A DNA stretch of 64,000 bases from Marsupella aquatica (GCA_973895155.1 OZ316892.1:758917-822916); one strand, 5' to 3'. Shown: positions 11,401-58,221, numbered from the stretch's first letter. The notes: generated by a model from the sequence alone, not told the origin. Made by a program: numbers and translations.

Positions 11401-11668
11401 ACACATAGCTCAAGATAATTGCTATGCTCTAATGTTTGATATACACACAGACTTGGTGTATGGTGAGTTTGCTATCACAATTGTTCCCACTATGAGTTTT
11501 GAGAGTCGGATTATGTACAAGAGTACTTTAGTTAGTCAAATGGTAGGGAACCCCTACCTTAGCAAGGACCGTCTGACACGGGTGAAGCAAAGTCTTTATT
11601 TCAACAATTTGGTGGATAAACTAAAAATGCGGGTTGGTGCTCCAACTATGATGATGAGTGTTGGTAGT
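8430..11668 (+). pseudogene. P-element-like DDE transposase, 5' part (many stops and frameshifts)
   Basis: Motifs in order: HASDGDSRRR (~9740-9770), DQDFIHNGKKLVNPL (DxxH), DRHNW..AQRL, FFRLWRMW, TGSNSCKQC.SK, YKSTLVSQ.VGNP.LSKDRLTRV; continues in frame at 32321. Confidence 0.65.
9809..10136. mobile_element. MITE-like insertion (328 bp) with poly-G/poly-C termini
   Basis: Ends CTCGGGGGGGGGGTCAC and TGACCCCCCCAAG are inverted; flanks ATTTCAGG (9801-9808) and ATTCCAGG (10137-10144); removal restores the frame DYTRRG-IPGPRQNLKWEGW of the host transposase. Confidence 0.8.
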
Positions 11669-12056
11669 AACCCCAATTTAGACAAAACCAGAATTTATTA
11701 AGTCCGGAATTCATAGTGTATATTATTTAATATTATATTTAATTATGATTGTATTATACATGTATTTTTTTGGTATATGATTCTCTTTAAACCATACACA
11801 AGGATAATACTTTCACAATCCATGGAGCGTAGCAATAAAAAATATCCTGTTTGTGAACATATAGTGTACATAGTACATGGAGGTTTACTCGGAATGAAAA
11901 ATTTAACATAAACATCAAATTCATTTGCAATAGAGAGTAATTCAAGATAGAGCTTTAAGATAATGTAACTTGGACACTTTTTATTATAGTGAATGTAGTA
12001 TCACAGACAATATGAAACATAGTCTTTAATCTAAAACCAAATTTAAATAACTCTAT

Positions 12057-12680
12057 TTAATCTTTGTAAATAGACACCTTAATGTCTCTACTTTTTTGGA
12101 ATTCTTCTCTAGGCCTCATTGACCACAATGGATAGTTGGATTTAATAAATCTATGTGCACTAACCTTTGAGTGAGCAAGTCTTAGAAGATAGGGCATGAG
12201 AGTGTTTTCTAAAAACTGGTCACCTAGATCACCGTAAAAGGGTTTTGGATGAAGTGCAGCATAATATGGAGAATCAAAACTTATAGATGCTGCCTCTCCT
12301 AAGAGTACTACATTTTCATATAAATACCCAGGGGCTTCTTTCATAACAATCTTGATATTCATTCCACACTGATTTGACTTAAGGTCGTCTTGTCGGCACC
12401 ATAGTATCTTAAAACTTTCAAGAGCCTTCTCAGTGAGAAGTGGATCAACATGATCGGCCACTTCATACCAATCAGTATGATTCCGGGACCAAAATCCAAT
12501 GTCAAAGTTTTCAGAGCAAAATTTTAAAAACTCTTGAACAAATGGTCTAGGAAAGATCATTTTCTTCTTAACGCAGAAGGCAGTCGAATTTCTTAAATGC
12601 CTTGAGAACCCAGCGGAGAAGACGAGAATGCTTTCAACATGGAAAAGAAGTAATTTTCGGGTAGAAACAAATTTTATAAT
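12057..12680 (-). CDS. FCP1/NIF-like HAD phosphatase-fold domain, copy 2 (catalytic Asp lost); probable terminal exon of the cargo gene
   Basis: RKLLLFHVESIL...IFPRPFVQEFLKFCSENFDIGFWS...ENVVLL...HPKPFYGDLGD; acceptor tgtgcag immediately upstream. Confidence 0.75.
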   Translation of the reverse strand: MIKFVSTRKLLLFHVESILVFSAGFSRHLRNSTAFCVKKKMIFPRPFVQEFLKFCSENFDIGFWSRNHTDWYEVADHVDPLLTEKALESFKILWCRQDDLKSNQCGMNIKIVMKEAPGYLYENVVLLGEAASISFDSPYYAALHPKPFYGDLGDQFLENTLMPYLLRLAHSKVSAHRFIKSNYPLWSMRPREEFQKSRDIKVSIYKD

Positions 12681-12796
12681 CTGCACAACACAAAACATGT
12701 CAGCAATTGAGCATTAAATAATACAAAACAAAAGAGGCAATAAACTAAATAAAACATTAACATTAAATATGCATGAGAAAAAAAGAGTCCTTACAT

Positions 12797-13489
12797 TTAT
12801 TGAAAAACAACGTCAGCGTACTCATTAAATCGTTTGAGGTGATGTGGGTCACTCTCTAACCTCACAGTGTCATTAGTTGACCAGATCATTCTATTTTCTT
12901 CCCAATCTTCAACTAGTGCAGACAATGACCAAGTAGGATATTTGTTTTGTATGGTTTTGTGCATTGTTTCGGAAGAGTTCAGGAGTGTTTTGAGGTATGG
13001 AATAAGAGTGTTGGGGAAAAAATTGTCCGCTATCTGTCCAGAATACGGTTCAGGGTAGAGAGAAGAGTAAAATGGATTTAGGCACGTTTTGTAAGGAGAG
13101 TCATCAATGAGTATAATGTTTTCACTATAATAGTCATTTTCTAGTTTCGAACGCAGATTTTTCAACTCTTTCAAGAAAATTGGTTTTTGGGTTTTGAAAT
13201 GGTTGCCAACTCGAACTGTGTCCTGTTGAGTAGCAATAAATTTTAACTGTTTTCTGTCATCACTAGTCAATACAGTTTGAAGGATAGGCTTAAGATTGTG
13301 CCATTGCATGCAGGACCAAATTGCAACGTCGAAGTTTGCTTTGCAAAAATCTAGAAACTCGCGCAAATACGGCCTCTTGTAGATGAACTTAGACCCGACC
13401 CGAACTCCGGCACTTTGGTCAAGTAGTTTGGTAGAATACACACTTAACAAAATAACTTTGTTTACATCAAGAATAATGAGTTTTTTCAC
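12797..13489 (-). CDS. FCP1/NIF-like HAD phosphatase-fold domain, copy 1; probable internal exon of the cargo gene
   Basis: KKLIILDVNKVIL, YKRPYLREFLDFC..NFDVAIWS, KPIFLKEL, ENIILIDDSPYK..LNP; acceptor gtacag precedes the ORF start and donor gtaagg follows the end. Confidence 0.85.
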   Translation of the reverse strand: MKKLIILDVNKVILLSVYSTKLLDQSAGVRVGSKFIYKRPYLREFLDFCKANFDVAIWSCMQWHNLKPILQTVLTSDDRKQLKFIATQQDTVRVGNHFKTQKPIFLKELKNLRSKLENDYYSENIILIDDSPYKTCLNPFYSSLYPEPYSGQIADNFFPNTLIPYLKTLLNSSETMHKTIQNKYPTWSLSALVEDWEENRMIWSTNDTVRLESDPHHLKRFNEYADVVFQ

Positions 13490-14349
13490 CTGTACATCAA
13501 GAAAAAAAATAATGAGAGAATTACAGTTTTATAAAATCTATGCAAACAAAACTAAATTTTTGCAAGACCCCATTTCTACTCTTTGAAGTAGCTGCTTTTT
13601 TAGTTGATATATCTCATCACAAAGTTATGATGTGTATCCCATTTCTGTCCGATGCAGAAATTCTCTTTCTGAAAGTGGGAACATCCTTTACCTGGTTGCA
13701 TGATGAGGTGATTTGATATTAGAATAAGCTCAAAAATATAAACCAGAGGCGATGAAATAAAACTAGACAGTACATTAAGGCTACTTAGGATAATAGAAAG
13801 TTTACCTTATGCCCTTGGAAAGGTAGTGGCATATTGAGCAAAACATCGGCGTATGCTTCATCTGTTTCATTTTCCTGTTCTTCATTGAGAGAATTTGGTT
13901 CCATCTGATCACCTTCGTTGCCATCTGACCTCGCATCTGACGGCCCATGGGTTGTAGCTAAAGAAGTATCTTCATTCAACTTTGCCCAAGCATGATCGCA
14001 TCGGGTCATGTCAATTAAAGCATTCTCCTCGGCCATCAAGCTAATGGAGGGCTCTCCAATCCGACCGCAAGCTTCTTCCATAAATATTTTATTCTCTCGA
14101 ACTCTTTTCTCTCTGAAGGTGTTATTAGAGTTGAGATATCATTCAAAACAGTAGTCCAAAATTGTCTCCCATTCCAAGCATGAAGTTTCAATTCATCGGG
14201 GAAGTATACTTCCCAGTCTGCAACCGAAATGTTATCTGGCCGAGTTGTGTCTTCAAGACTTACTACTGATCGAAAATAATTCCGGATATTTAGTTTCACA
14301 ATATCATTATCACCGGCTTTGTTCCAGTAGTTTTCTTCTCTTTCTCCAT

Positions 14350-14900
14350 CTTCTGTTACATTTTTCCCCTTGTATCCATCGCTCTGTTTGTTGCTCTCCT
14401 CCTTGTCATCACTACCTCGGTCTCCTTCCTTGTCATCACCACCTCCATCTCCTTGCTTCTCATCACCATCTTCATCTCCTTCACCATCCAGCTTCGTTTT
14501 TCCCTGCTCCTCATCACCACCTCCATCTCCTGCACCACCTCCATCTCCTTCCTTCTCATCATCACCTCCATGTCCTTCCTTCTCATCACCACCTCCATCT
14601 CCTTCCTTCCCATCATCACCTCCATGTCCTTCATTCTCATCTCCTGCACCACCTCCATGTCCTTCCTTCTCATCATCACCTCCATGTCCTTCTTTCTCAT
14701 CATCACCTCCATGTCCTTCCTTCTCATCACCACCTCCATCTCCTTCATTCTCATCTCCTGCACCACCTCCATATCCTTCATTCTCATCACGATCACCATC
14801 TTCATCTCCTTCACCATCCAGGTTAGTTTTTCCCTGCTCCTCATCCGCCCCTCCTCCTTCTTCAGTGTATGTAAATTGCCTTTGCTCTTTCTCATCTGCT
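14350..14900 (-). repeat. Coding minisatellite (GGDDEKEGH / GGGAGDENEG units) in the acidic region of the cargo gene
   Basis: 27-36 bp units of catcacctccat(g/c)tccttccttct; stop-poor, which explains the stacked ORFs. Confidence 0.9.
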
Positions 14901-17900
14901 TGCTGTTTTTGATCTTGTTTTTCTTTCATCCGCCGCTCCCTCCAATTGTCATCAAACTCCTGTTCGGAGTCATCGGTACCGCTGGTTGGTTTCTGCTTCC
15001 TTTTTGTATACTTTTGACAAGTATCAACTCGTCTCCTGTTTTGACTTTTCTTATGCTGTAAAGTCTCCATGTCACTTTCGTCACCCATATTCTTCCGCTT
15101 CTTTGAATGATTGTCTGCACTCATGGACTCATTTGAGCTCTCGTCTTGGTTTCCAGATTCTGACCCTGGTTCTTCATCATCGTCTTGGTTTTCAGATTCT
15201 GACCCTGGTTCTTCTACATCGTTTGGCTCCTCCTCACTTGATTCATACTCTCCAGTGTTGATTTCATCTTCAAAGATAGTAGACTTCTCATCTGAAACAG
15301 AGGAACAACAATCAGATTTCAAAATTTCATTTGTGCAATCAAGTTAGTGAATGTATTAAAATTAATCAAGTATATGGTTTCGGCTGACTAACCTTTAAGT
15401 GGTCCAACTGGCATCTTTGATGGGAAATAGTATATCCAATTCTGGCTGAGGAGGTTACTCAATTCATACTCTTTTAAAACTCTCTCAACGTTTTCATCAC
15501 TATATGTGAGCATGCTTTTACAATGATCAATTACATCTTCTTTGACTTCTCTGAAGGTTTTTCCTCGAGATATCTTCGCATTCATCATTGCCTCAAGCCT
15601 TTTTCTGTCGAGACATGGTGCTTTACTGGGATACAAGACACCAAAATACCCACTCATTTCTGTGTGAAATGATCGTTTACAATAAGATCTAACCTTAACT
15701 CCTTCTTCCTGGAATAAACAAGCAAGATGTTAGAGGAACTTAAGATAAGGTTAAAGCTATTCAAAAATAGAATTGTAATAATACTTGAAAGCTTACCAGG
15801 AGGCATTTGACCAAGTTTAGCCCTTCTCCAAAACAGACAGCACGCTTTCCGTTGTCGAGAAACAGTCGAGTCAAGTATTGGAAAAAGAGAATACTTTTCT
15901 CACCAGGGAAAGACCTAGCAGCCTGATCCTCTTTAGACTCCTGAAAGTTAAGGAGAGTTCCCCGAGTTTGTAGACTGGACTTAATTGCTTCCCCTATCTT
16001 TGTCATGTCGGTAGATTTTGATAAGAGAGGTTGACAAAATGCATATGTCACAGTATATGTAACATCCCGCTCTGTGTTAAAGAGGGAAATATGAGACTTT
16101 TCGGTGCCTCTTCTCTGGACGTAAGTTGTTTGGAATGGGAAATATCCTGGAGTTGACACTAACTCTCTCATCATGAAAATAGACTCAATAGGATCTGAGA
16201 CATGGACAAGGACATGATTTACCGTCCCCATCTGTTTAATTGCTCTGATGAACATAGAGTAAAAACTGGATATGAATGGACCGTCATCAGATAGAATAGT
16301 GGAGTCAAAATAGAAAAAGTCTACCCGTTGTCTCAGGGACTCAGAGATTTCGTCAAGAAATTTCTTTGTTTTCAGACCTTTCCGCGAGTGTAACTGAAGG
16401 ATATCCTTGATTTGGGGAGGCTTCAGGTTTCCAAACTCGTCAATGCAGTTCTTTGTTGCGGCAATTAAGCTCTTAAAAGCCTCTGGGAGAAGACTCTTCA
16501 TTGTTCCAACACTGGTTGTTTTCTGCGACGCCTTGTTGAGATACTCCTCTCCTAGTGAATCCCTGATCCTGCTCAGCTTTTCTTTATTAAGATGATACCT
16601 CTTGCACAAGATATCAACCTCAACTTTCCTCTCAATCTTTTTCAGGCTATTCAATTCAATACGTTTCATGCCACCGTCACCCAAGTTCTCCAACAGATCT
16701 ATCTCAAACATTCGCTTATGCTTCTTGTTGACACAAAATTCTTCCATGGAAATAAACTTTTCGGCTTCTTCAGCATCATAATCTTTTGAATGGGGTCGGT
16801 CCTTCAAAAGAGATATCTTTGAATTCTCCAACAAGTAGGCGGCAACCTTGTCTATGTCAGCTTCCTCCATCCCTTGTAGATCTCGGAAGCATCGCCTATT
16901 CAGTTGCCAAGTCTTCCGGTTACTGTAAGTTATTGCCTGAGCTTGCGTTTTACCATTGAACGCTATAAGGGATCCTGTACGAGACTTCTCATATACCCGC
17001 ATCCATTTGTTGAATGTTGCATCGCTCATATGAAAGATAAACGGATTGAGCTCGGTAAATGAAAACATTTTCATCTGCCGTGCCCATGGAACAATAATCT
17101 TGGCAGCTTCAAGGAACACCTGAATATAAAACATTACAAAATATAATATTAGAACCCTACAGAAAATACAGATTCAAGTCATTATGTTCAATGTTACCAC
17201 ACAAACCACGGGTTGTAGGGCTCATGCTATCTAGAAGTGTCTGATAATTTACCTTCCATTTTGACCCCTTTGCCTGAGCATTCTCTTTTCTTGGACTTCC
17301 AAACTCTTTCCATACTGCACGTGCTTGGGACGCTATCAACGGAAAGTTAGTCTCGTCAAGTTGAGTTCTCTGGATATTGTTCAAGGCTCGAGAGAGTCCC
17401 ATCATCGTGAGGTTTTCTTTCAAACTGTATGGGGACCAGAACATAATTGCCTGAACCTTGCGAAGATCCTCCCGAAATGTGCATCGCTTATCATCTTCCT
17501 TGAGGATCGCCTTGTATGCCATTATTGTGTGCTGCCCACCAAGAATCCAGAAGTGACAAGTGTTGGTAATATCATCACTCTGCGGTGCCTCTTTTAGAGG
17601 AGTTCCATAGTAACCTTTTGATTTGTTCTTTGAGTCCCATGTTATTGGGACAAGAAAGCAGAGAGTTTTTTGAAAGGTTATCGAGGAGTAGCCAAAGAAA
17701 GCAGCCTTCAGTTCGGTGGCATAATCTTCATCAAAGTCATGACATTTTATGTGATTTGGTGCCAGGTGACATCTCTCAATAGGCACCTCAAAAGTCTTGC
17801 TCTGAAAGATGTTCAGATGAGAGTATGATTCTAGAAAGCTGCAAAATAATTCATCCACGTTCTCCGTCGTGATATCCTTTGGAGGATTTGATGCCAAAAT

Positions 17901-18564
17901 CCCCCCTTTCCCGGTGACAGAAAATATTTTGGTGAATGGTTGTTTTGAGAACTCCAAAATGGCATTGATGTATCTGGAGATACTTTCTGGATCTGGAACC
18001 AATGGTGCAATGGGAAAGCCCTCCCAACAATTCGAACCAAGCAATTCTGAACTTGAGGTGAGATATTCTGTGACTTTCCGCTGGGAGAAAGTTCCATAAT
18101 CCATTCGATCAAAGCAAACCCCAATTGTTTCTCCAGTTTCTCTTTCGTCAAAGAGAAGTACCAATGCTTCTTGTAGGTCATCAAGCCCCATATTTCGCTT
18201 GAAGATGCATCCCACAATTTCTGCATCCATGACAATATGTAACGTCTCCTTGTGCGTGAAACATATTCGCAATTCCTTATTCTGGAGTACTAATCCCCAA
18301 TCAAAGACGTTGCTTGACTTCACTCTATAAATTGAGCTGGCTTCCGGTGAGGTAAGGTCCCGTATCTTTTTCCCTCGATATGTTTTGATCATTTTCATCT
18401 TATCAAGCTGGTCAACAATTGAGCTTTCGGTCTTGCTCTTTGTTTGGGAGCTGCCATTTCTAGGAGCCATATCTGGAGTCACACAAAAAACAAGGAATTT
18501 TGTTTAATTAAAAAGGAAGGTCTCTCTATAGTTAGTTTGTTTGAATGGATGACAAACACAGCCA

Positions 18565-19133
18565 ACAGCCCGCGGGTGGTGAGGTATGCTAAACAGTTGA
18601 TCCAAGTGAGCCTCAGGGCCCGTGGGTGGTGGGGTGTTCTACACAGTCGGTCCAAGTGATCCTCACGACCCGCGGGTGGCGAGGTATGCTAGACATCCGG
18701 TCTTAGTGAGCCGCACTGCCCGCGGGTTGCAAGGTATGCTAGATAGTAGGTTTGAGTGAGCCTCACGGCCCGTGGGTGGTGAGGTATGCTATATAGTCGG
18801 TCTGAGTGAGCCTCACGGCCCGCGGGTGGCAAGGTATGCTAGAGTGTAGGTCTGAGTGGCCTCACGGCCCGTGGGTGGTGAGGTATCCTATACAGTCAGT
18901 CTGAGTGAGCCTCACGGCCCACGGGTGGCAAGGTATGCTAGACTATAGGTTTGAGTGAGCCTCACGGCCCGTGGGTGGTGAGGTATACTATACTGTCGGT
19001 CTGAGTGAGCCTCACGGCTCGCGGGTGGTGAGATATGTTGAGCTTTTAGTGAGTTGCACGTACAACCCGCGGGTGGTGAGGTATGCTAGACAGTCAATCC
19101 AAGTGAGCCTCACGGCCCGCGGGTGGTGAGGTC
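18565..19133. repeat. 50-bp tandem array (~12 copies), each with a 24-bp imperfect palindrome CCTCACGG-CCCGCGGG-TGGTGAGG
   Basis: CGCGGG/CGTGGG/CACGGG cores at ~18571, 18621, 18671, 18721, 18771, 18821, 18870, 18920, 18970, 19020, 19068, 19118; lies ~100 bp upstream of the cargo ATG. Confidence 0.95.
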
Positions 19134-21989
19134 CTCTCTTGTTTTATGAGCCTCCTAAGCCCCCGGATCAATAGTATACTCATTAATCAATATATTCATT
19201 AGCAATTGACCCAAAATCTAGTTAGCTAGGCTCGAGAGGGTGTGATTGAGGGGCTAGGATTATGTGACGGACAACCCTTCATAGTTTATATATGATTGAT
19301 CTATATTTTGGCTAGAGTAGCCCCTGTGGATCAAGAATCATTACCCTTCTTTAATAGTGATAGTACTCATTACAAACAATTGCTAATCTCCTGATAACAG
19401 TCTTTCCTCATAATCTCTTTAATATTGGTGGCAATTGCGTACAATTCATGGACGAGTTCAACTCTACAATCTTTACTATGAACCAGACAATGAGTTCCAA
19501 AAGCTCTTACCTCAAGATTTTTGTTCCCGGATTTTGTTGGGCTCTAATCTCTTCAAACTTCAGCAGATTGTTGTTTCAGTGTGTAAGATTGAGGCATCGC
19601 AGGTAGACTATACCCCGCACAATGCTTGTCAAGGATGTAGGCAGGAGAAGCACTAGAAACCTGCAAAACAAATTGACACACTTGTTTTTTTACGCAGAGT
19701 GATGCAGTTGCGGTAGATGTACCAACTACGGGCAGAAGGAATCACATTGAGATCAAGAAGATCGACAGACAGATTGAAAATTTCAATCTGGAAACTAAAC
19801 AAATTAACAAATGTGCATTGATACAATAGGATTTTATCACAACAACATTGGGTATGAATAGTGGATGCAATCACGGATAGTGGATAGTGGATGCAATCAT
19901 GGATTAACTAGTCAGTGGATACTGAAATTTTGACATCTTCATTACATTTAGATATGACACCAGGGGCTTACCTATAATTATTCCAAGGGTGCAAATTTTT
20001 GAGGAGCAGGTCGGAGTAGATGCTTGGGACGATTAGGCCAAATTGTTGTTAAATCCCTGGCGGCTATGGAATCTGAGCACCATGGACCTGCACAACATTT
20101 GACCCAAAGCCAGAGTGAGACACAATCTCAATCACAGGAATCATCCATACTCACTTATCTGATTAGGAGGCCATGGATTTCATCTTTGACAGAGTACTTG
20201 AAGGGAAGGAGTAATTAGTACAGGAGAACCAATCTCAACAGCACAGTACTCACAACATATTGAAACAAAGAGCCGAGAAACTTTCGTGCCTCCCAAATTT
20301 CCAAAAATAATGACATTTGGCTCAGTGACCTACTGTGTACTTGTAGAGGGCCCACATAGCTGGGCTCTCTGGACTACAATAGCAATCTATGAAACCAATG
20401 AATTTGAGAACAAGGGCAGCAGGGTTTAGGATACTATTAACACCAATCGCTGTACATTCCAAAACAACACCTCATTTCAAATAGATCCCTACCTGACAAC
20501 CTCTACCTATGGGATTACATAGCTCAATGAATGATCGGCTGACCTCAAACTAAAAATGTCATCTTTACATATCCAGATGAACGATGATGAATGATGAACG
20601 ATTTCCAGATATCTAGATGAACTATGAACGATTGCCAGATGAATGATGTCTTTGAAGAAAGACAATTGATGATCTTTGAATTTGGAGCTACTTGACTACC
20701 TTGATTGCAGGCAGATTAGAAATTATTGGGATGACTAATGTCACCTTTAACAAAGAAACAACAGATTTGGTGCAACCGGGGTTGCAGCTTAAGTTATCAG
20801 GAGGCACACAAACGGACCAACTTGACTGCTCCACAACTATGAAAAATTAAATTCGAACAACAACCACAACACAGGCTTTAAGGACTACTACCCTAAACAA
20901 CTACGTTCCTTCTCCTCTATCAAGCATCAAGATTGAGAACGATAACATTATTTGACAACATTCCATAGACCCATGCAAACATAGACTTCTCACAGAATAA
21001 GCGGCCTGCGAGAGATCCCAAATGCGACTATCTTGCTTGTTGACATAGTAGATCATGATCATTCACATAGCAGATCACGTATTATGGCAAACACATCATT
21101 TACTGTCCAATGTAGTCTCCAACAATGAGTCGAGCAATACAAGGCAAGGCAATCACACCTGGATGGATTATTGACAATGGATGGATACCGCTCTCCACAA
21201 CGTGGTCACCACAAAATCCGTAGTCAACAATGGATCATCCAGGCTCTGTCACGCACATTTGCATCTGAAATCGCAAAAAGCATAGTCAACATACTTAGGG
21301 AGAAGGGGCTCGAAGGCTGACAAAAGTCTGAGAAGTCTAAAAGGAGAAGTCTGAAAGCAGGAAAGCATTCCAAGAAGCACAAGGCTAGGAAAGCATTCGA
21401 CAGGAGGATTGACAAGCCTTTGAACAATATATATATATAGGTGAGTTTTAGTACCTTTCAGAGCTTGTACATACAAAGACATCGTGCCTCACTCCCGCGA
21501 CGTTTGCTCTCAACCAACGCAAAACACATTGGTGCCTCCAAAAAACGCAACCTAGCAACACAAAACTCCTCATTCATCAATTCACTTTCGCACTTGCCAT
21601 CCAAACGGCATTTCAACCCAACGGTGTCCGACCCACTAAAAGTCACTACCGACGGTAATTAATTCCCCTCCTTTCTTGCTAGAAACAATGATACTATTCC
21701 GATTGTTGAAGATATACTCTTGCGACTTCACAAAGTGAACCAAATGAAATGATTTAGGTTCCAGTCAAGGTGTTGCATACCTCAAATGTCTAGCTCATTT
21801 TTGGAGAAAGAGAGCTCCTTGCCCCGACACAAAATAGTATCAGTACAAAGCAATCCAGTTCTCAATTGAACACCTCATGAATGCTTTGTACGTTCGTCCG
21901 CAAAATAGTATCAGTTCTCAATTGAACACCTCTTGAATCAAATGGTAGTCTCTAGAATCGCCATATCGATCAACCTCATATAGATCCTC

Positions 21990-22200
21990 AATCTCCCTTC
22001 CGCACAATGTCGACGACTCCCTTCAGTCTCCCTTCCGCACAATGTCGACGACTCCCTTCAGTCTGACTCGTTCGCTTCAGTTCTTCCGCACAATGTCGAC
22101 TCGGTGTCTTCGACAATCTGACTTGTTCGATTCAGTTCTTCCGCACAATGTCGACTCGGTGTCTTTGGCAGTCTGAATCATTTGATTCAGTTCTTGAACG
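21990..22200. repeat. Short degenerate repeats ttccgcacaatgtcgac (4 copies)
   Basis: Copies near 21998, 22033, 22084 and 22139. Confidence 0.8.
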
Positions 22201-22329
22201 TGATCGGTAGTACTCAAACAGGCGCGAGTGGGGAAAAACGTCGCCATCATCTAGTGCGCGCGCGAGTGAGCAAACACATCACCATCATCCAGTTCACAAT
22301 ACCCGTCCTGCTGTACGTTGATGCTATCA

Positions 22330-25300
22330 CTTGATTGAGTACGTTGATTCCCTGGATGGAAGTATACTTAAATGCCAGGGGTTTATCAGGTAGCCCTATG
22401 CTCCATGTTTGGGTAAATAATGGACAGAAGTCTAATTTAATGGAAGGGTTTAGCAGGTATTGCTATTCTCCATGTTCATTGTGCAGCCCTCGATGGAAGT
22501 ATAATTTAATTGAATTAGGGGAGTTTAGAAGGTATCCCTAATATCCATGTTAGCTAGTCAAACCCTAGCTAGAAGTATAGTTTAATTGATTGAAGTGGGA
22601 TTTATAAAGTATCCATAAGTATACATGCTCCATGTTAGTGCAACCCTACTGGAAGTACAATTTAATTCAAGGGGTTTATCACGTATCCCTAGCCTAGGTT
22701 CCATGTGTGTGCAACATGGAAGGAACCTGGGCAATTTAATTCGAGGGATTTCATAAGGTAGATCCCTATTTCCCATGGTGGTGCAACCCTGGATGGAGGT
22801 GCAATTCAATCCAAGGGGTTTTATATGGTGTTGCTCTGCTCCATGCATGTTACTTGAAGGCGTGGGGTTTGATAAGGTATCTCTACGCTCCATGTTAGTT
22901 GAAGGGGGTTTATAAAAATACCTATGCCCCATGTTTGGGCAACCCTATAAGGAAGTAGAACTTAGTGCAAGCAAGGTTTAATAATGTATATAGTTTAATG
23001 GAACTAATTAAGGGGGTTTTATAAAGTATACCTATGCTCCATGTTAGTGCAACCCTGGATGCCTGGAAGTATAATTTAATGCAACTGAGGGGTTTTAAAA
23101 CGTATATATATCCCTAAGTCTGCTCCATGTATGTTAGTTCAACCCTACCTGGAAGTAGAATTACGTTGGAGGGGTACCCTAGTAGAAGGAAGTAGAACTT
23201 AGTGCAAGCAGGGTTTTATAAGGTACACCTAGCTACTAATTATGCTTCATGTTTGGGAAACCCTGGATGGAAGTATATCATTGGTTTAATGGAACTCGGG
23301 GTTTAGAAAATATACCTAGTATGCTCCATGTTAGTGCAACCCTGGATGCCTGGAAGCATAGTTTAACGCCGGAGTGGGTTTACAACGTATCCCTAGTATG
23401 TTCCATGTTAATTAGCGCAACCCTAGCTGCATATCTAGTTTAATAAAGGGGGTTTATAACGTATACCCATGCTCCATGTTAGTGCAACCCTGGATGCCTG
23501 AAAGTATAATATAATGCAAGGGGTTTTAAAACGTACGTATATATATATCCCTAAGTCTGCTCAATTTTATGTTAGTTCAACCCTACCTGGTCCAGGAAGT
23601 AGAATTACGTTGGAGGGGTACCCTAGTAGAAGGAAGTAGAACTTAGTGCAAGCAGGGTTTTATAAGGTACACCTAGCTACTAATGCTTCATGTTTGGGAA
23701 ACCCTGGATGGAAGTATATCATTGGTTTAATGGAACTCGGGGTTTAGAAAATATACCTAGTATGCTCCATGTTAGTGCAACCCTGGATGCCTGGAAGCAT
23801 AGTTTAATGGAGGGGGTTTACAACGTATCCCTAGTATGTTCCATGTTAATTAGCGCAACCCTAGCTGCATATCTAGTTTAATAAAGGGGGTTTTAACGTA
23901 TACCCATGCTCCATGTTAGTGCAACCCTGGATGCCTGAAAGTATAATATAATGCAAGGGGTTTTAAAACGTACGTATATATATATATCCCTAAGTCTGCT
24001 CAATTTTATGTTAGTTCAACCCTACCTGGTCCAGGAAGTAGAATTACGTTGGAGGGGTACCCTAGTAGAAGGAAGTAGAACTTAGTGCAAGCAGGGTTTT
24101 ATAAGGTACACCTAGCTACTAATGCTTCATGTTTGGGAAACCCTGGATGGAAGTATATCATTGGTTTAATGGAACTCGGGGTTTAGAAAATATACCTAGT
24201 ATGCTCCATGTTAGTGCAACCCTGGATGCCTGGAAGCATAGTTTAATGGAGGGGGTTTACAACGTATCCCTAGTATGTTCCATGTTAATTAGCGCAACCC
24301 TAGCTGCATATCTAGTTTAATAAAGGGGGTTTTAACGTATACCCATGCTCCATGTTAGTGCAACCCTGGATGCCTGAAAGTATAATATAATGCAAGGGGT
24401 TTTAAAACGTACGTATATATATATATCCCTAAGTCTGCTCAATTTTATGTTAGTTCAACCCTACCTGGTCCAGGAAGTAGAATTACGTTGGAGGGGTACC
24501 CTAGTAGAAGGAAGTAGAACTTAGTGCAAGCAGGGTTTTATAAGGTACACCTAGCTACTAATGCTTCATGTTTGGGAAACCCTGGATGGAAGTATATCAT
24601 TGGTTTAATGGAACTCGGGGTTTAGAAAATATACCTAGTATGTTCCATGTTAGTGCAACCCTGGATGCCTGGAAGCATAGTTTAATGGAGGGGGTTTACA
24701 ACGTATCCCTAGTATGTTCCATGTTAATTAGCGCAACCCTAGCTGCATATCTAGTTTAATTGAAGGGGGTTATAACGTATACCCATGCTCCATGTTAGTG
24801 CAACCCTGGATGCCTGGAAGTATAATTTAATGCAAGGGGTTTTTAAATGTACATATATATATATCCCTAAGTCTGCTCCATGTATTTAGTTCAACCCTAC
24901 CTGGAAGTACAATTAGGTTGGAAGGGGTACCCTAGTAGAAGGAAGTAGAACTTAGTGCAAGCAGGGTTTTATAATTAAGGTACACCTTAGAGCTACTAAT
25001 GCTTAGTTCATGTTTGGGAAACCCTGGATGGAAGTATATAGTTTCATGGAACTAACGGGGTTTTAGAAAATATACCTGTACAGTAGTACATGCACCATGT
25101 TCGTGCAACCCTGGATGCCTGGAAGTATAGTTTAATGGAGGATGGTTTACAATTTATCCCTAGTATGTTCCATGTTAATTAGGGCAACCCAAGCTAGAAA
25201 TCTAGTTTAATTTAAGGGGTTGGGTTTATAACATGTCGCTATGCTCCATCTTAGTCCAACCCTTGTCGCTATGCTCCATCTTACTCCAACCCTAGCTAGA

Positions 25301-26085
25301 TATATCTAGTTTAATTGAAGGGGCTGGTATTAATTTATAACGTATCCCTATGCTCCATGTTAGTTGAAGGGGGTTTATAAAGTATTAAGGGGGACAGTTA
25401 CCCGGACAGTTAGCGCAACCCTACTAACTGGAAGTACAATTTAATTATAACATGTCGCTATGCTCCATCTTAGTCCAACCCTTGTCGCTATGCTCCATCT
25501 TACTCCAACCCTAGCTAGATATATCTAGTTTAATTTAAGGGGCCGGTATTAATTTATAACGTATCCCTATGCTCCATGTTAGTTGAAGGGGGTTTATAAA
25601 GTATTAAGGGGGACAGTTACCCGGACAGTTAGCGCAACCCTACTAACTGGAAGTACAATTTAATTCGAAGGGTTTATGAGGTAACTATCCTGAGTGATGC
25701 TCCAATGCTTCATGTATGTGCAACATGGAAGGAAGTGCAATTTAATTGGAGGGATATTATAATAAGGTATCCCTATGCTCCACTTTGAAGGGGGTTTATA
25801 AAGTATTAGTACCTATGCACCATGTTTGTGCAACCCTAGAAGGAAGTAGAACTTAATGCAAGCTAGAGGGATTTTATAAGGTACACATGGGCTTCATGTT
25901 TGGGAAACCTTGGATGGAAATATAGTTTAATAAATGCTGGATATATATATATATATAGTTGAAGGGGGTTTGATAAATTATCTCCATGCTCCATGTTAGC
26001 GCAACTCTAGCTGGTCCGGATATATAGTGTAATTGAACTAATTAAGGAGGTTGTCTTAAGGTATCCCTATGCTCCATGTTTACAA
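22330..26085. repeat. Satellite: ~55-70 bp monomers organised into ~440-bp higher-order repeats with diverged monomeric flanks
   Basis: Monomer core ctatgctccatgttagtgcaaccctggatg...ggaagta...gggtttata; near-identical short ORFs start at 23249, 23690, 24129, 24568 (period 439-441). Confidence 0.95.
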
Positions 26086-27693
26086 TAATATATACCATAG
26101 TAATATTACAGTACATTTAATATCCCAATCATATATTTAACGTAACTGAAATAATATTTAGTTTGTATGTTGGAAGGTAACGTATTGTCAGATTGAAAAA
26201 GCAATGTTGAAAGTATTGACGTAATTGCAAACATAGTAGATCCAACATCGTATTTTTATAACGTCTACAGTATAAGCAAAACGTGGATCCGGCCGTCAAA
26301 TTGCATCCAAGTTTTCCCTCCAAGAGAATTGTATTTGAAATTTGAATTTGAATGATGCTCAGAGTGAGCGTGAATCATCATGCAGACTCTTGCACCGGCC
26401 TCAATCTTCAGTTCTCGCCGAGGTTTCTTTTGTAAGGCCTTGCACCAGCCTCAGTCGACTTCAGTCCTCATGTTTCTTGTGTACCCGCTTGTGTAAGGTC
26501 GCGTTAGTCTCGCTTGTCTTGCAATCTCTTTGTTGTGGTCACGATACTGGCTTATTTCACATTGCGCATTCATCTTCAATCAATCCTCGTCTGAGTTTCA
26601 AGTTTGAGGTATAGCAATTGTTTTAGTGATACTTCTTGGTCGAGAGCTTGATCGGTTAAGGCTCTCTCCCATAATAGCTTAAAACTTGCGGGAGAGAGCT
26701 CAACCGGCTGAGCTTGATTAGAGGAGAGGAGTCATTCAAGAGGAGAGCACTACCGGCTGAGCTCATTTAGATCGAGGAAAGTCACCCACGTCGAGACAAT
26801 TCGATCAGAGGACCGAGAGTAATCTAGGGAGAGCTCGATTACCTGAGGAGATCGATAAGGAGCTAGCTTCTCTGGAGTGATCGGGAACAACATTCAAGCT
26901 ACAAGAGAGTGTCGTCACTCAGCATAAGGTATGCAGTCTACTTTCAAATCCCTAATTTATTGTTTGGTTCATTGTGTATAATTTGTAACCTGTTTATATC
27001 TCTTCTGGTTGAGTCTGTGTGTTAAATTTCTTCGATCCCGTGACTGATCAAAGCAATTTTGTTTCTAATGTGATGAACGTAAACTCTATTCATGTACTCA
27101 GATTCAATTCATGTATTCAGATTCAATTCATGTACTCACATTCAATTCATGTTCTTTGTGAAAGTTCGAATCGGATACAATATTGTATATGCTCTAGAAA
27201 TGGATTTTGTTGTACGCAAATCTAAAATTTTGGAGTAACTACTAAACCCTAAAATTCTTTAAAACACAAAATCTAAGATCACAATTTCACCTGAAGACTT
27301 GACCAGTTGCTGGAAATAATTAAGTTTGCTGCTCACTTGAGGTGAAGTGTTTCTCATTTTATGAACAAACAACATCAATCATCTGTTCAGATAGTAAACC
27401 AATTTTAAATAGCCCTTCATAATTTTGAATAGCCCTTATTAATTTTCATAATATTCAGTCAGGGAGTGAGATCTCAACCCTAAAATTGAACTCCTGACCA
27501 CATCCGAACATCATGTAACAAATTAAACAATTTAATCAGGAAATCAAATCTAAACCGTTTGATAAGCCGAATAAACTCAAATCTAGTCTGAACCCTTGAT
27601 AACTACTATCATGTGTCAAAAGGGGACAATATTCATTATTAATATCATAATTTCTTGTGACCCTAATTTGGAACCCGTGAGGAAATAGGGATA

Positions 27694-27717
27694 TTTAGGG
27701 TTTAGGGTTTAGGGTTT
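27694..27717 (+). repeat. Short plant telomeric-type (TTTAGGG)3 tract / telo-box
   Basis: tttagggtttagggtttagggttta. Confidence 0.7.
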
Positions 27718-28405
27718 ATATATCCACACCCGGGGTCCTAAAATTTGTACACTGCACAACCCACAGGCTGTAGGGTCCTCCATCTCTGATTGATAGAATT
27801 CAAGAGAATTTCTTGTAATGTTTTCATAAAAATGTTATTACATTCTAGTTATTGATAAGGTTTATCAGCCGCCAGCCTACTGATGGTCGATGAATTTGTG
27901 TACCCTGCAACCCGTGGGTTGTGGGGTATTGAGTTGATTGTTGGGTACACAATGATACTTGGTGTCAAAACTTACTAGAGCCAGTTAATCCTTAGCTAGA
28001 CACCTTTTGTAGATGTTGCACATATATATATATATAACAAAGAATATTGTTTCTTGGAGGGAGCATCTCTTGAATGAAGCGAAATCAATGTTGTTCACAA
28101 CCCACGGGCGGCAGGGTACTGATACCTCAATAAGTATTGTTCACAACCCGCGGGCGGTAGGGTACTGATACCTTGAGTTAAGTTAATCAACAAAGCCCAG
28201 ATGCAGGGCACCTTAAATTCCAATCTGAGCTACAAAGATGACATAATATCCAAAACATTATTCTCTGATCTTTAGAGAACCTTCTTTTTTTAGAAAGTTT
28301 TGTGATAGAGTGGCATCGTTTTGGGATTCGGATAATTTGAGATAAGGGCAACCGAATAATGTAAAGTGGCTAACAAATATTATATATTGCTATTGCAGAA
28401 CTAAA

Positions 28406-31400
28406 ATGTCTACGACCATCCTGTCTTTTGAAGTGGGTGACATGGTCGGATTGTTTGGCTCAAAGATATTGGTTGGGATGGGAAAGATTTTTAGTAGTGA
28501 TCCCACCAGGATTTGTCACACGGTGGAGTTAGGTCCGGATCATGTAATGGTGGAGGTTATTGAATGTTTGGATGAAAAGTTCATATTTTCTGATGGAGAA
28601 TACTTGAAGCATTTGATTGGATCCTTTCTTGTTTGGGATAAAAATGATCTCAGAGTTCATCCCTTTAGAGAGAAACACCCTGAAGTCCATGTTGATGAAG
28701 TTGACAATATTAACAGTGCCCGTGATAGTGTCCCTGGGGAAGTTGATCCTAGCACTATCCGACGAGTTGTACCACAAGTTGGGATGGTTGTGAAAGTGTT
28801 TGATGAAGCAAATGTTAATTTTGCTGTAGCGCTGATTACTTTTGTGACCCAAGGATCAACATTAGGGGAAATTATCATCGGAGACACACACATTGGGATA
28901 CTCATTACTGATTTTGTTGATGGCGCGACAAATGAGCACCTTAGATACAGGAATTGTCTTGTCCCTTGGCCTCTCAGCTTGTTGCGAGCTAGTGAAGGTC
29001 ATATGTTGAGCTTTCCAAACAAGGGCACTATTCCTATAGAGATTGATGCATCCAGTCGAAAGCGATCTTATGTGAACATTACAAGGAGAAGTAAAGTAGC
29101 CAACATTTCACTGTCAAAGAAAAGCAAGTTTCTAGACCGTGAGGATGCCAAAAACATTAGTAAGGTGGATTGTTGTGAGGAACAATGCTGCCAATTTTTT
29201 AACCGTGACCTTGCACATAATCTCCGAGAGAAACATTGGGCAAAGAGCTATCAGATGCGGAAGGAAGATGAAGTTACTGCTATTGTGAACTCACTCCATG
29301 ATGTTAGCGGTAGAGTGATAGTTGGTATGGAGGGAACCAATGGGAGAGGGGTTTGTCTGGAAGCGTGGAGGGTGATATACGGAAAAGGAAGAAGTCAGTT
29401 TTATGAGGTGAAGAAAATGGTAAGGGCAGGGGCAAGTATGTGTACTCATGGGAATCTTGGAAAACGATGAATGTCTGAAAGAGTTTCCCAAGCGCTTATG
29501 TCAATGAAAGGGATTATAGACGAATGCGCAGATAACCATCCAGCTAAGTTACGAACTATGAATGACAATACCCGCCAAGTACTTAGAGAACTTCCAATAG
29601 GTTTGAATTGGGAGAATTTGAGAAAGAAGGTGAACTCTAGGAACAAAGAGTTTGGTATTGGTCCAGTTTCCCAACCGACTATGAGTGTTCTGCGAAACAA
29701 TCACGTTAAGGAGGTGGGGATAAAGAAGAAAGGGAGTAACTTCTCAAAGTGCACGACTTGTTGTGAGTTAAATGAACGCAAATCCAAAATGACTGGAGGA
29801 AGAGAGGAAAGGGAACTTTTGAAGGTTGATGAGGACAGACATCACAAAGATCATACCGAAGGGAGAATGTTGTATCATGCTTGGAGGTTTGAATCGGTGC
29901 ATAGGCCAAAGGAGGTCTTGTGTATGATTCACGACAAGATGGATCATTGCAAGACTGCACTACCGAGAATGCCATGATGCCCAAAATCGTTGGATGGTGT
30001 GCAGAGGGTCCCGGTTACTCTTACTGGTATCTTGACTCATGGTCATGGTCCAAAAGCAATTGCCCAGTATAATATTGGAGTGTGGCCGGCTGATCCTAAT
30101 GCCTGCATTGGTTCCTTGGATTCAATATTTCGAATGCTAGAAAATCCGGTACCAATGGTGAAATCATTGCTTGAAGGACCAGATTCTACAGAGCTTTTTT
30201 CAAATTTGTTAATTGGAAGAATGCCCGTCTTGGGAGAAATGGTTCAAGATGCATTCAAGGAAGACATAGACTATGCATTCTTCCAATTTGTTAATTGGAA
30301 GAATGCTCTACCATAGGTAAGTACACGCATTGATTAGGTGTAGCAACTAGTCTATCCTTCTAGGAGTGAATCTCATCTTCTAATCGCATTTTTTAAATTA
30401 ATTTCTAGATCCAAAATATTAGCCTCTTAGAAAGGCTACAACCCGTGGGCTGTGGGTAAATCTCAAATATTGTTTTGGTTGAGATTGAGTAATAGTGTGT
30501 TTGAGATTACAATCTAGATGCATGTCATTGTTCTGATTGTTAAAATTTCTTATTTTTCAGGGGCTTTTGAAACATCATCTTTGACACAGCTATATAGACC
30601 ATTGCCAAGGATCTTGAAGTTACAACTTGATAATTGTGCTGGAGATAACAAAAACAGATTCATTTTGGCATATTTGTCACTTTTGACAGCGAGAGAGGTG
30701 TTCGAAGAAGTTCATTTGGGATTTCTGATGGTCAGACATACTCATGAAGATGTTGATGCAATGTTTGGTAATTTTTCGGAAGCTCTAATGAGGCAGCCAT
30801 CGTATACTCTCCCAGATTTAATGTCGCTACTAATGAAATCACGAAAACCAAATCCTGTTCCCCATTTTGTACAAGAAGTGCCTGATTTTAAAAGTTACTT
30901 AGCACCTTATATGTTGAAAGGGGGAGATACATTGGTGGGCCATTTGAAACCTTGAGTGTTTCGACTGTATGTTCGAGAGGATGGCATGCCTTGCATGCAA
31001 TACAAGCTAAAGGCAATGGATCAAGGGTGGCTTCCGAATGGCGGAATTGAAATGTGGTCATGGACAGTCAAGAAACGTCCTAACCTTCCAACCGGAACAC
31101 CAAAGAGGTTACCAATGACAGAGGTTAAAGTGTTGGAGGAGGTTCGAGAAGGTCTACTGAAGCAAGTGCACTTTTTTGAATTGATCATGAGGAGAAGTCA
31201 CATTGTGGAGGAACAAAAAACAAGTTGGGAGTCACTGATTGAATATTGGAACCGTGTGAGAGGCACTTTGGGTATAGAAGTACAATATTTTCCGGAAGAT
31301 GGAAATGAGTTGGTGCACGGATTTTGGCCTGTATCCAAATGGAGGGAGCATGTTCCATTAGCATACCGTAATGTTGCGTGTGAGTTGGATGCACAAATAG

Positions 31401-31874
31401 ACTATGTGGGGCCTCGGAAGGATAAGCCACGTGAGGTTTTTAACCCACGGATTGATGTTACAAAGGGTGTTTATGTCATGGTGAGACCAGACACCCACGA
31501 CTTGGATACTTACCCAATCTATTTGGGAGAAGCGGTGAGTGATGTGGAAGAGGGAAGTCCAAATGATCACAACCAGATAGAACACATGTGTGAGATGGTT
31601 ACGACCTGTCATGCAAAAAAAACGAGGTCAACCAGCATGTGAGCAAGCAAAAGTACGATGGCTCAATTGTTGGAACAAGAAATGGGAATGTGATCCTGAG
31701 TATGAAATAGAGAGAATTAGTGTGAATACTGTGCTATGGTGTTTCAAATCGCGATCTACTGGAAAATCTGGTTTGATTTCAATTCCAAAAAGACATACTG
31801 AGAAAGCACAAAACAATCTTACTAGATGCATTGAGAGTGAGGTACCAGGAAATGGAGAAGAAAATGTTGAATAG
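28406..31874 (+). pseudogene. Sola-like DDD transposase (three in-frame TGA stops, one frameshift, one intron ~30317-30560)
   Basis: FSKCTTC, MIHDKMD..KTALP, LQLDNCAGDNKN, FLMV(R)HTHEDVDAMF motifs; consecutive in-frame ORFs 28406-29470, 29471-29977, 29990-30316, 30561-30955, 30956-31642, 31590-31874; acceptor ttgcag just 5' of the ATG. Confidence 0.85.
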
Positions 31875-32320
31875 ATCTGCTTGGATATACAAAATGATTG
31901 TTATTACAAGATAGTACTTACTTAGTGCAGCTGCAGTATTAAGTATCATTATTATGATACACTGGTAAATTTAGTTTAATATGTACTTGACAAGTATAGC
32001 TTGACGCCAAAGATTTCAGGATTATTGTAGGCAATACAACCAACCATGGATTGTACATGTTTCCTTATTTCTATGTAAATGACCCTTACTATAGCTCAAG
32101 GTCTCGCTCAAAAGTGTGCAATTTGAGATTAAAGATTTGAGTACACATAATTTGTTTAATCAATGACAATGACAACACAAGTGTATGATTGATTTATAGA
32201 ATATCATTATAGGTTTGAATGGGGCTTAATGTATTTAATTGTATTTAATTGTATTTAATTGTATTTAATAAAATCCGGAAATTATCCAGAAGTCCAATTT
32301 TGTCTAAATTGGGGTTTAGT

Positions 32321-32779
32321 GATTGTGGAGTGTTTTTTGTGGATGAGAAGGTACAGGGAAGAGTGACAAGAAGCACTGAGACCACACAGAATGGCAAACA
32401 GAAGCGAAGGAGGCCAAGTGGTTTGCCAATTCCAGTTGTGTCGGTAACCAATAGCCCCAAATATGTTTGGTGGATAGGGAGGGCCCAAACTATTCAACAA
32501 CCACATGGAAATACAAGCGAGAGATCACGAGAACCAGTGGACTTGCTTGATAGGTCTGGTCCAGAAGTTGCATGCAAAGTGTTCTTTAATTGGTTTACTC
32601 CGATTGGTAACAATAAGGAAATGTTTAGATACTCTGTGTGTGATCCTCAATGGATTGATTTAGATTGTGTGATATCAACAGTCACCCTTGAAGTCAATCC
32701 TTTGCATCCAAAGGTCTTCAAATTGCATCCAGATGATGCAATTGCATTGGATAATTTTATAAAGAGCAAGATTGATTAA
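32321..32779 (+). pseudogene. C-terminal continuation of the P-like transposase split by the 20.6-kb insertion
   Basis: DCGVFF...WWIGRAQ...REPVDL...NWF follows the right TSD in the same frame as ...MSVGS before the left TIR. Confidence 0.8.
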
Positions 32780-34539
32780 TTTGGTAAGCACAATATGATA
32801 GTTGGTAAGTATATTTTCAAATTGACTTCTTGTCATTTTGCAAGGAAGTGTGTCTAGGTTCAATATCTGGTTTTGAATGTCATCCAATGTTAAGTTTGCT
32901 TTTACTCAACTTGTGAGTCTTTTCATGTTCAAATGTTGATATGTATGTGATTTCTTGTTATTCAGGTGCATCATAATGATGTTTTTTAGAGGATCAACTA
33001 AGTTGCGCATGGGCTGGCTTGCTTGGCCCCCAAAGAAGAAGGATGAAGTCAACAAAGGAGTTCAAGGCGTGTTGCTTTGATGGGGATTTTAGAATGTCAA
33101 TCAAATAGAGAGATTATTTCAAACCAGAGTCACTTATGTACCTCGATACAGATTTATCACTTGTAGTGAAAAGTATTGGTTTGAATGTAGAAAAACTTTC
33201 ATATAAAAGTTGAACTTTGAGACTGAGCGTAATGTCTTTGCAATTTCCATAGATGATAGTGTAGAATTATTAATCCAACTTAATCTTGATACTTGCATGG
33301 GGGAGAGTTTGACTCTTATGTGTTATGTGCCTCACTATCTTCCTTGAGGAAATGTGGATATAAATGATATATTATTCACTTTATTGCTTGTGAAATGTGT
33401 ATTCCCTTGTTTACTACTTTGAATCTGTTGAAACTAATTTTTTATAACATCTGAAGGGCATGTTTAATGTACTTTTGATTATGATAATAATAACCTCAAG
33501 GGCTTTCTTAATGTTCCAAAAGTAATTTGATTAATACTAATAAGAGGTTTTTAAAAAAGCAAAAATAGTATCAAAGGGTTTTGGAGGGGAGGCTGTTCAT
33601 AGGTGGGTTCCGTTAATATACACGGAGTGAAGGCCTAGGGAGTTCAATTGTCCATTTTTGGTACCAATTCCTTTCAAGAGGAAGCCATCTTGTTGCTTCA
33701 CTGGCTGAAACCAACCTGCAAAAGTACAAAGCCGAGAAGCATTACAAATGGCTTATTCGTCTACTAGGCGGTTCCCACTGGATCAATGATTTTGGTCTCC
33801 CCATTCGAAAGCAAGTATTGTAGGGAAGACAAGATCACTCAATTCTTCTTTGAAGGAGAAAAGTACATTGGCTTTGGAGAATCCTTGCTCTGTCTCCTTG
33901 ACAAAGTCTTCGGGATCCCTGGAACCATAGACTTGCAATGACACCATTTTGATGACATACCCGCTCGAGTACAGTCATTCATCAACTGTAGATTTGGCAT
34001 GGCCCCAACTTTGGCTTGACATCAAGACCCATGGCACCTCCTTAGCAGCACCAATAGCCAACCTTCCCGGGGATGGCCAGACTCAAACGCCACCCCGAGC
34101 CCCCTCAAGCCGCTCCCCACTGCTGACTGTACTGCCCGTATTTGATTCAAGTTGAAATATATACAGGTTTTTTTGCTTTATCAATAGAAAATCACCGACG
34201 AGGTATTGAACTAATGCCAAAAGTAAAGCTGCAAGTAGAAACAAAGAATAACTAATTATGATGAGCATAAAGAACCTAATAAAATGTTGTTTTGGGTGCA
34301 GTCTATGGTAAATGTGGTAAACTTGAGCTTGAAAGATGAGGAGGTCATCCCCCTTGTGCGCAACCCACCTGCGACCCGATGAGGATCACCCCAATGCCCC
34401 AACAAGCATGAACCCGGGAGGCAACCTCGGTAGACACTACGGTCACAGTTGCAGCCCCGACGTCCGTGCTAGTGGCAGTAGCAATACTGTCACCACTAGA
34501 ACAAGAGGAAGGCCAGTTGTCACCCTTGACAAGTCACCC

Positions 34540-55034: not shown

Positions 55035-56346
<1,312 letters not shown>

Positions 56347-58206: not shown

Positions 58207-58221
58207 GTAGATTGACGTGCA

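Follow-up and report, generated by a model that had tools for sequence, protein, structure and literature searches.

A 20.6-kb DNA transposon, most likely a Sola1 element, with a divergent accessory gene in Marsupella aquatica

When two genes and a long stretch of tandem repeats sit together inside a repetitive sequence, did they arrive as one mobile unit and, if so, of what kind? This question is raised by a 64,000-nucleotide (nt) stretch of the Marsupella aquatica genome (GCA_973895155.1 OZ316892.1:758917-822916; hereafter the window), in which a transposase gene and a second, accessory gene lie head to head, about 10 kilobases (kb) apart, with the gap filled by tandem arrays. In our judgement the block is, with good probability, a cut-and-paste transposon of 20,648 base pairs (bp), in all likelihood a Sola1-type element, which entered one member of a multi-copy repeat as a single piece and thereby duplicated the four bases TAGT at its target. 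The boundaries of the element and its 4-bp duplication are exact to the base and are not a matter of chance, given the statistics of its terminal inverted repeats (TIRs), the TAGT pair, the rejoined reading frame of the host sequence and the ungapped sister copies of the insertion site. The features that define the unit, numbered from the first base of the window, are the following.

11665..11668, no strand: left copy of the target-site duplication (TSD), TAGT, read from the window and present as a single 4-mer in sister copies of the flank
11669..11687, plus strand: left TIR, 19 bp, with an AACC terminus (motif search and inverted-pair scan)
32298..32316, minus strand: right TIR, 19 bp (motif search and inverted-pair scan)
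32317..32320, no strand: right copy of the TSD, TAGT (window sequence and contigs)

The element (11669..32316) has termini of the form AACCCC...GGGGTT. Its terminal 19-mer, AACCCCAATTTAGACAAAA, has two matches in the 64-kb window even when up to 3 mismatches are allowed, one at 11669-11687 (plus strand) and one at 32298-32316 (minus strand); about 0.03 matches are expected by chance, and 0 of 100 shuffles contained two. Beyond the 19 perfect bp the similarity of the two TIRs is imperfect and extends to about 45 bp. Excision of 11669-32320 (20,652 bases, 3 x 6,884) fuses the open reading frame (ORF) at 11348-11668 with 32321-32776 in one frame, and the joint reads ...MMMSVGS/DCGVFFVDEK. A preliminary description of this DNA had proposed a single unit bounded by a perfect 19-bp TIR pair and a TAGT duplication, the removal of which rejoins a flanking ORF (SVGS/DCGVFF); all of this holds. 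Inverted-repeat and repeat scans of the element found neither internal TIR/TSD pairs nor long terminal repeats (LTRs). The observed/expected ratio of CpG is 0.53 in the element versus 0.35 in both flanks, and the lower ratio of the flanks indicates that the insert is younger than the host repeat. A scan of metagenomes with the 19-mer returned 10 loci that share only 19-23 bases with it, none with a transposase match, and these were rejected as chance matches.

Further copies of the flank and of the element were sought in Logan contigs of four public sequencing runs (X1-X4), which come from two studies and carry two coded organism labels; the best-matching run may derive from the same sample as the window. 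The summed depth of the left flank is far above that of the element interior (2,098 versus about 160-300 in X1; 194 versus about 45-52 in X3), which makes the host sequence a multi-copy repeat. Sister contigs of the flank, in three different versions that differ from the window by transitions, cross the insertion point ungapped and with one 4-mer only, as expected of the empty-site copies that the preliminary description had suggested looking for. One sister contig in X1 continues past 11661 as CGGCAACAACTATGGAG..., and at the right edge sister-copy contigs diverge before 32326 (X1), 32321 (X1, X4) and 32318 (X2, X4). These contigs are paralogous empty sites, and they fix the boundaries to the base. 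The right junction itself is spanned by contigs from three runs: X2 record 13 (291 nt, 0 differences), X1 record 6 (30 bases within the element) and X4 record 30 (29 bases). A 20.6-kb segment placed here by segmental duplication, or an assembly artefact, with coincidental ends and 4-mer, is an explanation to which we give next to no credence, as it would have to accommodate a 19/19 TIR match, an identical flanking 4-mer with a chance of 1 in 256, a junction that recurs in runs from both studies, sister flanks that are ungapped at the exact insertion point and a transposase gene inside the segment.

The same contigs bear on the integrity and mobility of the unit. Depth is flat over genes, arrays and ends, at about 45-52 in X3 and about 50-68 in X4, contigs of 2.8-4.0 kb extend from the accessory gene into a 50-bp array and from the arrays into the transposase gene, and the whole element is present in runs of both organism labels. 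Length variants were found in X1 and X3, in which 81 bases are replaced by 22 at 20587-20669 and the 50-bp array is shorter by 54 bases (joints 20587>20669 and 19047>19102). One X4 contig follows the right end of the element to 32317 and then continues into 255 letters of another flank; the first base of X4 record 26 falls on 11669, and ahead of 11668 X3 record 17 has 59 letters that do not align. Together these contigs provide thin evidence of at least one further insertion site. The depth of the element relative to its flank (about 56 versus 13.6 in X4; about 50 versus 36.7 in X3) is not a copy number and hints at extra copies or mixed samples. Similarly, in X4 the unique-looking right flank at 32683-33600 has a depth of 13.6 and the window-type junction a depth of 11.7, compared with about 56 for the element, which reflects either several element copies or a mixed sample. 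The X3 contigs leave a gap over 32334-32414; such a hole in contig cover is not evidence of absence.

What kind of transposase would move the element is indicated by the gene on the plus strand, the parts of which are as follows.

28406..31850, plus strand: DUF7869 transposase pseudogene (Pfam, ORF map, alignment of relatives, run contigs)
29924-29944, plus strand: motif MIHDKMD (translation)
about 30317-30517, plus strand: predicted transposase intron, 201 nt, GTAAGT...TAG (splice signals)
30620-30655, plus strand: motif LQLDNCAGDNKN, of the LQLDNCxxxNKN type (translation)
30728-30757, plus strand: motif MVRHTHEDVD (translation), with Arg (AGA) where relatives have Gly

The gene is read as five ORFs in one frame (28346-29470, 29471-29977, 29978-30316, 30518-30955 and 30956-31642); its exon model, like that of the accessory gene, is a prediction from genomic sequence. 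Pfam assigns it to DUF7869 (PF25273; E = 5e-36). An exhaustive HMMER search with the product of 30518-31639 as the query returned 2,799 proteins at E<=1e-3, of which 612 were at E<=1e-10, and the best are 60-61% identical. Named relatives come from the liverworts Calypogeia fissa and Riccia sorocarpa, from Chara braunii and from an amphioxus, a nemertean and a pearl oyster, with a Calypogeia fissa protein among the best (60-61% identical). Full-length relatives have 1,055-1,074 amino acids (aa), and the alignment starts at the N-terminus. The preliminary description had named DN-x-NKN and GHT-x-D as motifs of Sola-type transposases, and the DUF7869 transposase carries DN..NKN and (G)HTHEDxD, with GHT reading RHT here: three motifs that contain aspartate, IHDKMD, LQLDNCxxxNKN and GHTHEDxD, are conserved in at least 14 of the 16 full-length relatives and are present in the window copy. 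They make up a DDD-type core and, by analogy with a printed alignment of Sola2 transposases, would supply its catalytic aspartates.

The transposase gene in the window is dead. It contains three in-frame TGA stops (29468, 29975 and 30953), and at the last of these the two nearest relatives have Arg, consistent with a nonsense mutation of the CGA -> TGA kind. Recoding of TGA was rejected on the basis of this same Arg, the other two stops being in poorly aligned parts. In addition, the C-terminal 86 residues of the relative P0009 align in a different frame from 31590, and five extra bases, TGTGA, follow 31588 in contigs of X2, X4 and, in part, X3. With these bases the restored frame reads EHMCDVRWLRPVMQK, where P0009 reads EHVCFVKWYRPLMPK; the window copy has therefore suffered a 5-bp deletion. 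Together with the change from Gly to Arg in the conserved GHTHED, which is RHTHED here owing to an AGA codon, the three stops and the frameshift mark this copy as a pseudogene. Over the last part of the gene, the X1 depth is six to eight times that of the interior, which shows that related transposase genes are present in the same sample; these could act in trans. A 35-nt inverted repeat lies at 30190-30309, just before the predicted intron. Contigs of X2, X3 and partly X4 lack 29 bases in this interval, and the predicted exon end before the intron is therefore uncertain.

To which superfamily the element belongs is best approached by comparison with published systems, which we cite here from excerpts of the respective papers. 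Sola elements of plants have a DDD transposase, a 4-bp TSD, TIRs of 11-1,124 bp and lengths of 2-9 kb, with some of more than 15 kb, and have been reported in the moss Physcomitrella patens (PMC10741241); the DDD-type core, the TSD, the TIRs and the size of the present element fit this summary. The 4-bp TSD is given as a Sola hallmark (PMC10741241, PMC3627910). A giant element of the brown alga Ectocarpus, Sola1-1_Ec32, has AACCG-CGGTT termini, a 4-bp TSD, a length of 21,549 bp and an additional gene on the opposite strand, the 1,104-aa product of which has ParB-like and N4/N6 methyltransferase domains (Genome Biol 2025, PMC12477816). Since the 4-bp TSD, the AACC...GGTT termini, the giant size (20,648 versus 21,549 bp) and the head-to-head gene match Sola1-1_Ec32, the element is most likely of the Sola1 type; the termini have four bases in common and are supportive, not defining. 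The Sola-like assignment of the preliminary description is thus sustained by the TSD, termini, size and two-gene plan. Its view of Sola elements as a few kb long and limited to a transposase, and of the present element as an unusually large two-gene version, is contradicted by the size range for plants (PMC10741241) and by the published two-gene Sola1-1_Ec32 (PMC12477816). According to another paper, of which we also cite an excerpt, family E.10 of Majorek 2014 corresponds to Sola1. Our literature search for Sola in liverworts found none and returned only a fern genome paper.

The element also resembles Sola2 in several respects. The Asp-bearing motifs occur in the same order in both transposases, and in the excerpted account the Sola2 families DFa and PPa share with it a 4-bp TSD, short TIRs (12-21 bp in Sola2) and an unrelated second gene, in elements of 12-13 kb (PMC3627910). 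That second gene is a captured Fanzor1 gene, however, as opposed to the methyltransferase-like gene described below, and the printed Sola2 core motifs (DFAENY, SDGxxxQYKN and SHGKxxCDG; Bao and Jurka 2013, PMC3627910) differ from IHDKMD, LDNCxxxNKN and GHTHEDxD. Judged by these motifs, which are alike in order and type but different at the core, the element is clearly not a Sola2.

The second gene runs on the opposite strand, towards the left end, and comprises the following predicted parts.

14041..18470, minus strand: accessory gene, 4 predicted exons, about 1,370 aa (ORFs, GT-AG splice signals, borders of relatives)
18470-17253, minus strand: predicted exon 1, from the ATG at 18470
17119-15797, minus strand: predicted exon 2
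15708-15393, minus strand: predicted exon 3
15291-14041, minus strand: predicted exon 4, with the stop at 14038-14040
17253..18470, minus strand: within exon 1, a beta-rich N-terminal part, then a candidate ParB/Srx-like segment (conserved in P0192)
15794..16411, minus strand: probable beta-class N6/N4 DNA methyltransferase-like domain at the end of exon 2 (Atlas, AF2, Foldseek and a second structure search)
14395-14801, minus strand: 27-nt coding tandem repeat in exon 4, encoding a Gly/Asp/Glu-rich tract (repeat scan)
12057..13528, minus strand: two tandem NIF/FCP1 phosphatase-like domains, in ORFs 12797-13528 and 12057-12713 (Pfam PF03031)

The accessory gene is open throughout, with GT-AG introns of 133, 88 and 101 nt, and the borders of exons 1/2 and 2/3 coincide with the start or end of the relatives P0192 and P0195/P0193/P0194. 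Database relatives number two for exon 1 and three for exon 2, all from short contigs. The ORF and exon map, together with the repeat scan, bears out the earlier claim of a divergent second gene about 10 kb away across tandem arrays.

Structural comparisons place a methyltransferase-like domain at the end of exon 2. In a language-model search of the Atlas, PF01555 clusters account for 26 of 30 hits (score 0.90). The AF2 model of the product of 15794-16411 (pLDDT 62, pTM 0.66) has as its top Foldseek hits CcrM (the best, E 7.6e-4), MTA1 and M1.HpyAVI. In a VIA structure search, which is independent of Foldseek, N6/N4 DNA methyltransferases take every place from rank 1 to rank 13 (Z 9.6-7.0; 156-179 of 206 residues aligned). 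Comparison of the model indicates a Rossmann-type fold with motif IV ahead of motif I. The putative motif IV site reads SDPIE (in 16181-16204) where DPPY is expected, and FGEG (in 15815-15838) occurs at motif I; two of the three relatives have DPIE and the third DAVE at the motif IV site. The catalytic motif (D/N/S)PP(Y/F/W) is absent from this site in the window's protein. On the basis of these models, the end of exon 2 probably encodes an inactive beta-class methyltransferase-like domain. Exon 1 contains the strings VPIERCHLAPN (in 17754-17786) and WILGGQHT (17526-17549), which, with the GGQHT box, we take to resemble the ParB/Srx box. Its AF2 model has a pLDDT of 44 and is unusable over residues 190-448 (<50), and its Atlas matches are weak and uninformative.

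The two NIF/FCP1-like domains match PF03031 at 2.2e-16 (60.4 bits) and 1.9e-09 (37.8 bits), relative to a gathering cut-off of 21.8, and the second aligns only from profile position 34. The DxDxT motif is essential in phosphatases of the HAD class; at the corresponding sites the two domains read DVNKV (13454-13474 region) and HVESI (12627-12650 region), and they are likely to be non-catalytic. A perfect GTAAGT donor after 14264 could join exon 4 to an acceptor at 13489. The other option is an independent gene with its start at 14081, and the domains could thus belong either to the accessory gene or to a gene of their own.

Between the two genes lies a region of repeats, with the following components (none assigned to a strand).

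18568..19132: tandem array of a 50-bp unit in 11.4 copies, all of them with CCCRYGGGTKG; it starts about 100 bp upstream of the ATG of the accessory gene
19133..27900: intergenic tandem-array block (repeat scan, ORF map)
21988-22195: 35/55-bp array (repeat scan)
23005-25219: 439-bp x 5 array, built of 74-bp subrepeats (repeat scan)
25226-25665: 219-bp x 2 array (repeat scan)
27694-27718: TTTAGGG x 3.6, the plant-type telomere repeat (repeat scan)
27908..28154: four CCCRYGGGTKG motifs, including an inverted pair, 250-500 bp upstream of the transposase ATG

Apart from 22582-22944, the block at 19133..27900 contains no ORF of at least 100 aa. The window contains 18 copies of the motif CCCRYGGGTKG, compared with 0.12 expected, and 18/18 are inside the element, which makes up 32% of the window. 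Twelve are in the 50-bp array, four upstream of the transposase ATG, one in the transposase intron and one at 13944. From this placement, the copies may be binding sites or promoter elements. The TTTAGGG site differs among runs, with a G inserted at 27704 and loose ends at 27693 and 27723 (X3, X4).

With both genes in view, the comparison with Sola1-1_Ec32 can be extended, by description. Both elements have an accessory gene opposite the transposase strand that encodes an N4/N6 methyltransferase-type domain. Unlike the algal element, the present one is in a land plant, probably a liverwort; its TIRs are 19 bp and perfect, as opposed to 282 bp and imperfect; its methyltransferase-like domain is without DPPY, and its ParB-like domain is only a candidate. 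It adds NIF/FCP1-like domains, a 10-kb block of arrays and promoter-proximal arrays of the motif, and its transposase copy is dead, in contrast to the algal family, which has been classed as autonomous.

Several points weigh against the interpretation as set out so far. The Sola1 label is drawn from the length of the TSD, the termini, the pattern of the motifs and the architecture; the equation of DUF7869 with the Sola1 transposase core is our assumption, and our literature search for DUF7869 found no mention of it. The sequence of the methyltransferase-like domain has no match to a methyltransferase hidden Markov model (PF01555 or other) to E = 10 in Pfam, NCBIfam, PHROGs or PDB sequences, and confidence in its structural model is middling. 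For the ParB-like segment of exon 1, the same four collections gave no hit of note. The further insertion site is seen in single contigs, and protein binding to the CCCRYGGGTKG arrays is putative. An alternative is that this is a real DNA transposon, but that DUF7869 transposases form a superfamily other than Sola1, Sola3 or an unnamed one, that happens to share the 4-bp TSD: the core motifs differ from those printed for Sola2, and the literature search was silent on DUF7869. We consider this improbable, as the 4-bp TSD is given as a hallmark of Sola, the AACC termini, size and accessory-gene plan fit Sola1-1_Ec32, and the motif order D / D..xKN / H.K/H..D parallels that of Sola2.

If the element is a Sola1-type transposon, a related copy would supply a DDD transposase, which would bind the 19-bp TIRs with their AACC ends and excise the element, and reinsertion would follow by a 4-bp staggered cut; the present copy would move only in trans. 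Mobilization in trans has also been proposed in the Ectocarpus study, in the excerpt that we cite, in which frequent pseudogenized transposases were noted among giant KDZ, EnSpm and Sola-1 elements (PMC12477816). The accessory protein, with its methyltransferase-like fold without DPPY, might recognize the element's own DNA and not methylate it, and the CCCRYGGGTKG arrays upstream of both genes would be its candidate sites. In a more specific form of this proposal, which we consider rather unlikely as it stands, the accessory protein would be a self-recognition module: a ParB-like and dead-methyltransferase binder on the CCCRYGGGTKG arrays, with NIF domains that engage RNA polymerase II, through which the element would control its own transcription or chromatin. 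The land-plant protein would then descend from the algal ParB-methyltransferase accessory proteins, with binding in place of catalysis.

Whether the large size is original is a separate matter. A small Sola-type element could have been enlarged by nested insertions or captures, with the accessory gene, the NIF-like modules and the 10-kb arrays as passengers of one copy lineage. The NIF-like domains, which look captured, degenerated and of host type, are consistent with such growth, as are the array lengths that vary between runs (the X1 and X3 joints), the mere two and three short-contig relatives of the accessory protein and the fixed nested insertions that giant Ectocarpus elements often contain, according to the excerpted report (PMC12477816). 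Against it stand the negative scans for internal TIR/TSD pairs and LTRs; the interior depth, array block included, which equals that of the genes and ends in X3 and X4 and thus shows that the arrays are not built of high-copy elements; the CCCRYGGGTKG motif common to the upstream regions of both genes; the head-to-head two-gene plan shared with Sola1-1_Ec32 in the same source; and the occurrence of the whole unit under both organism labels and next to a second flank. We give nested growth only an outside chance, and return to the reading of a Sola1-type element that inserted whole.

On that reading, the giant two-gene Sola1 design, recently described in a brown alga, extends to a land plant. 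The locus would be a young example that is exact to the base, with clear ends, a target site and sister empty sites, and its combination of a dead transposase, an open accessory gene and a motif in front of both genes offers a testable case for accessory proteins that bind or regulate their own element. It would also follow that the many bryophyte DUF7869 genes labelled 'hypothetical' encode transposases, and that a 20-kb block around such a gene can be one mobile unit.

The sequence into which the element inserted (8508-11668 and 32321 to about 34900) is a multi-copy repeat, and several of its frames contain long ORFs. The preliminary description had labelled this flank a host transposase; the label found no support, with 0 usable Pfam hits at E up to 10. 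The D..H..KKL.N string in its ORF at 10029-10352 resembles, as we presume, transposases of the P-element/THAP9 type. A second partial copy of the surrounding repeat, at 41143-43841, is 70-81% identical to 5145-8320 and 34599-34903; in this downstream copy the part found to the right of the element (34.6 kb) precedes the part found to its left (5.1-8.3 kb), and the order suggests that the surrounding repeat is arranged in tandem or permuted fashion.

The remainder of the window contains other mobile sequences and, as far as was seen, one clear cellular gene; Rfam and tRNA scans of the 64 kb gave no matches. ORFs with zf-RVT domains (PF13966; 2.4e-10 and 2.7e-13), of the type found in plant non-LTR retrotransposons, occur at 6245-7537 (minus strand) and 45860-46540 (plus strand). 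At 48075-49695 (minus strand) a Helitron_like_N match (PF14214, 3.3e-51) is followed by two further ORFs on that strand, interrupted by stops; the whole is probably a Helitron in decay. The ORF at 55945-56343 (plus strand) has NAC and HYPK-UBA domains and is likely to be an exon of a gene for the alpha subunit of the nascent-polypeptide-associated complex. Near-perfect two-copy tandem duplications (87, 160 and 71 bp) are present outside the element, at 58031-58534 and 54835-54976.

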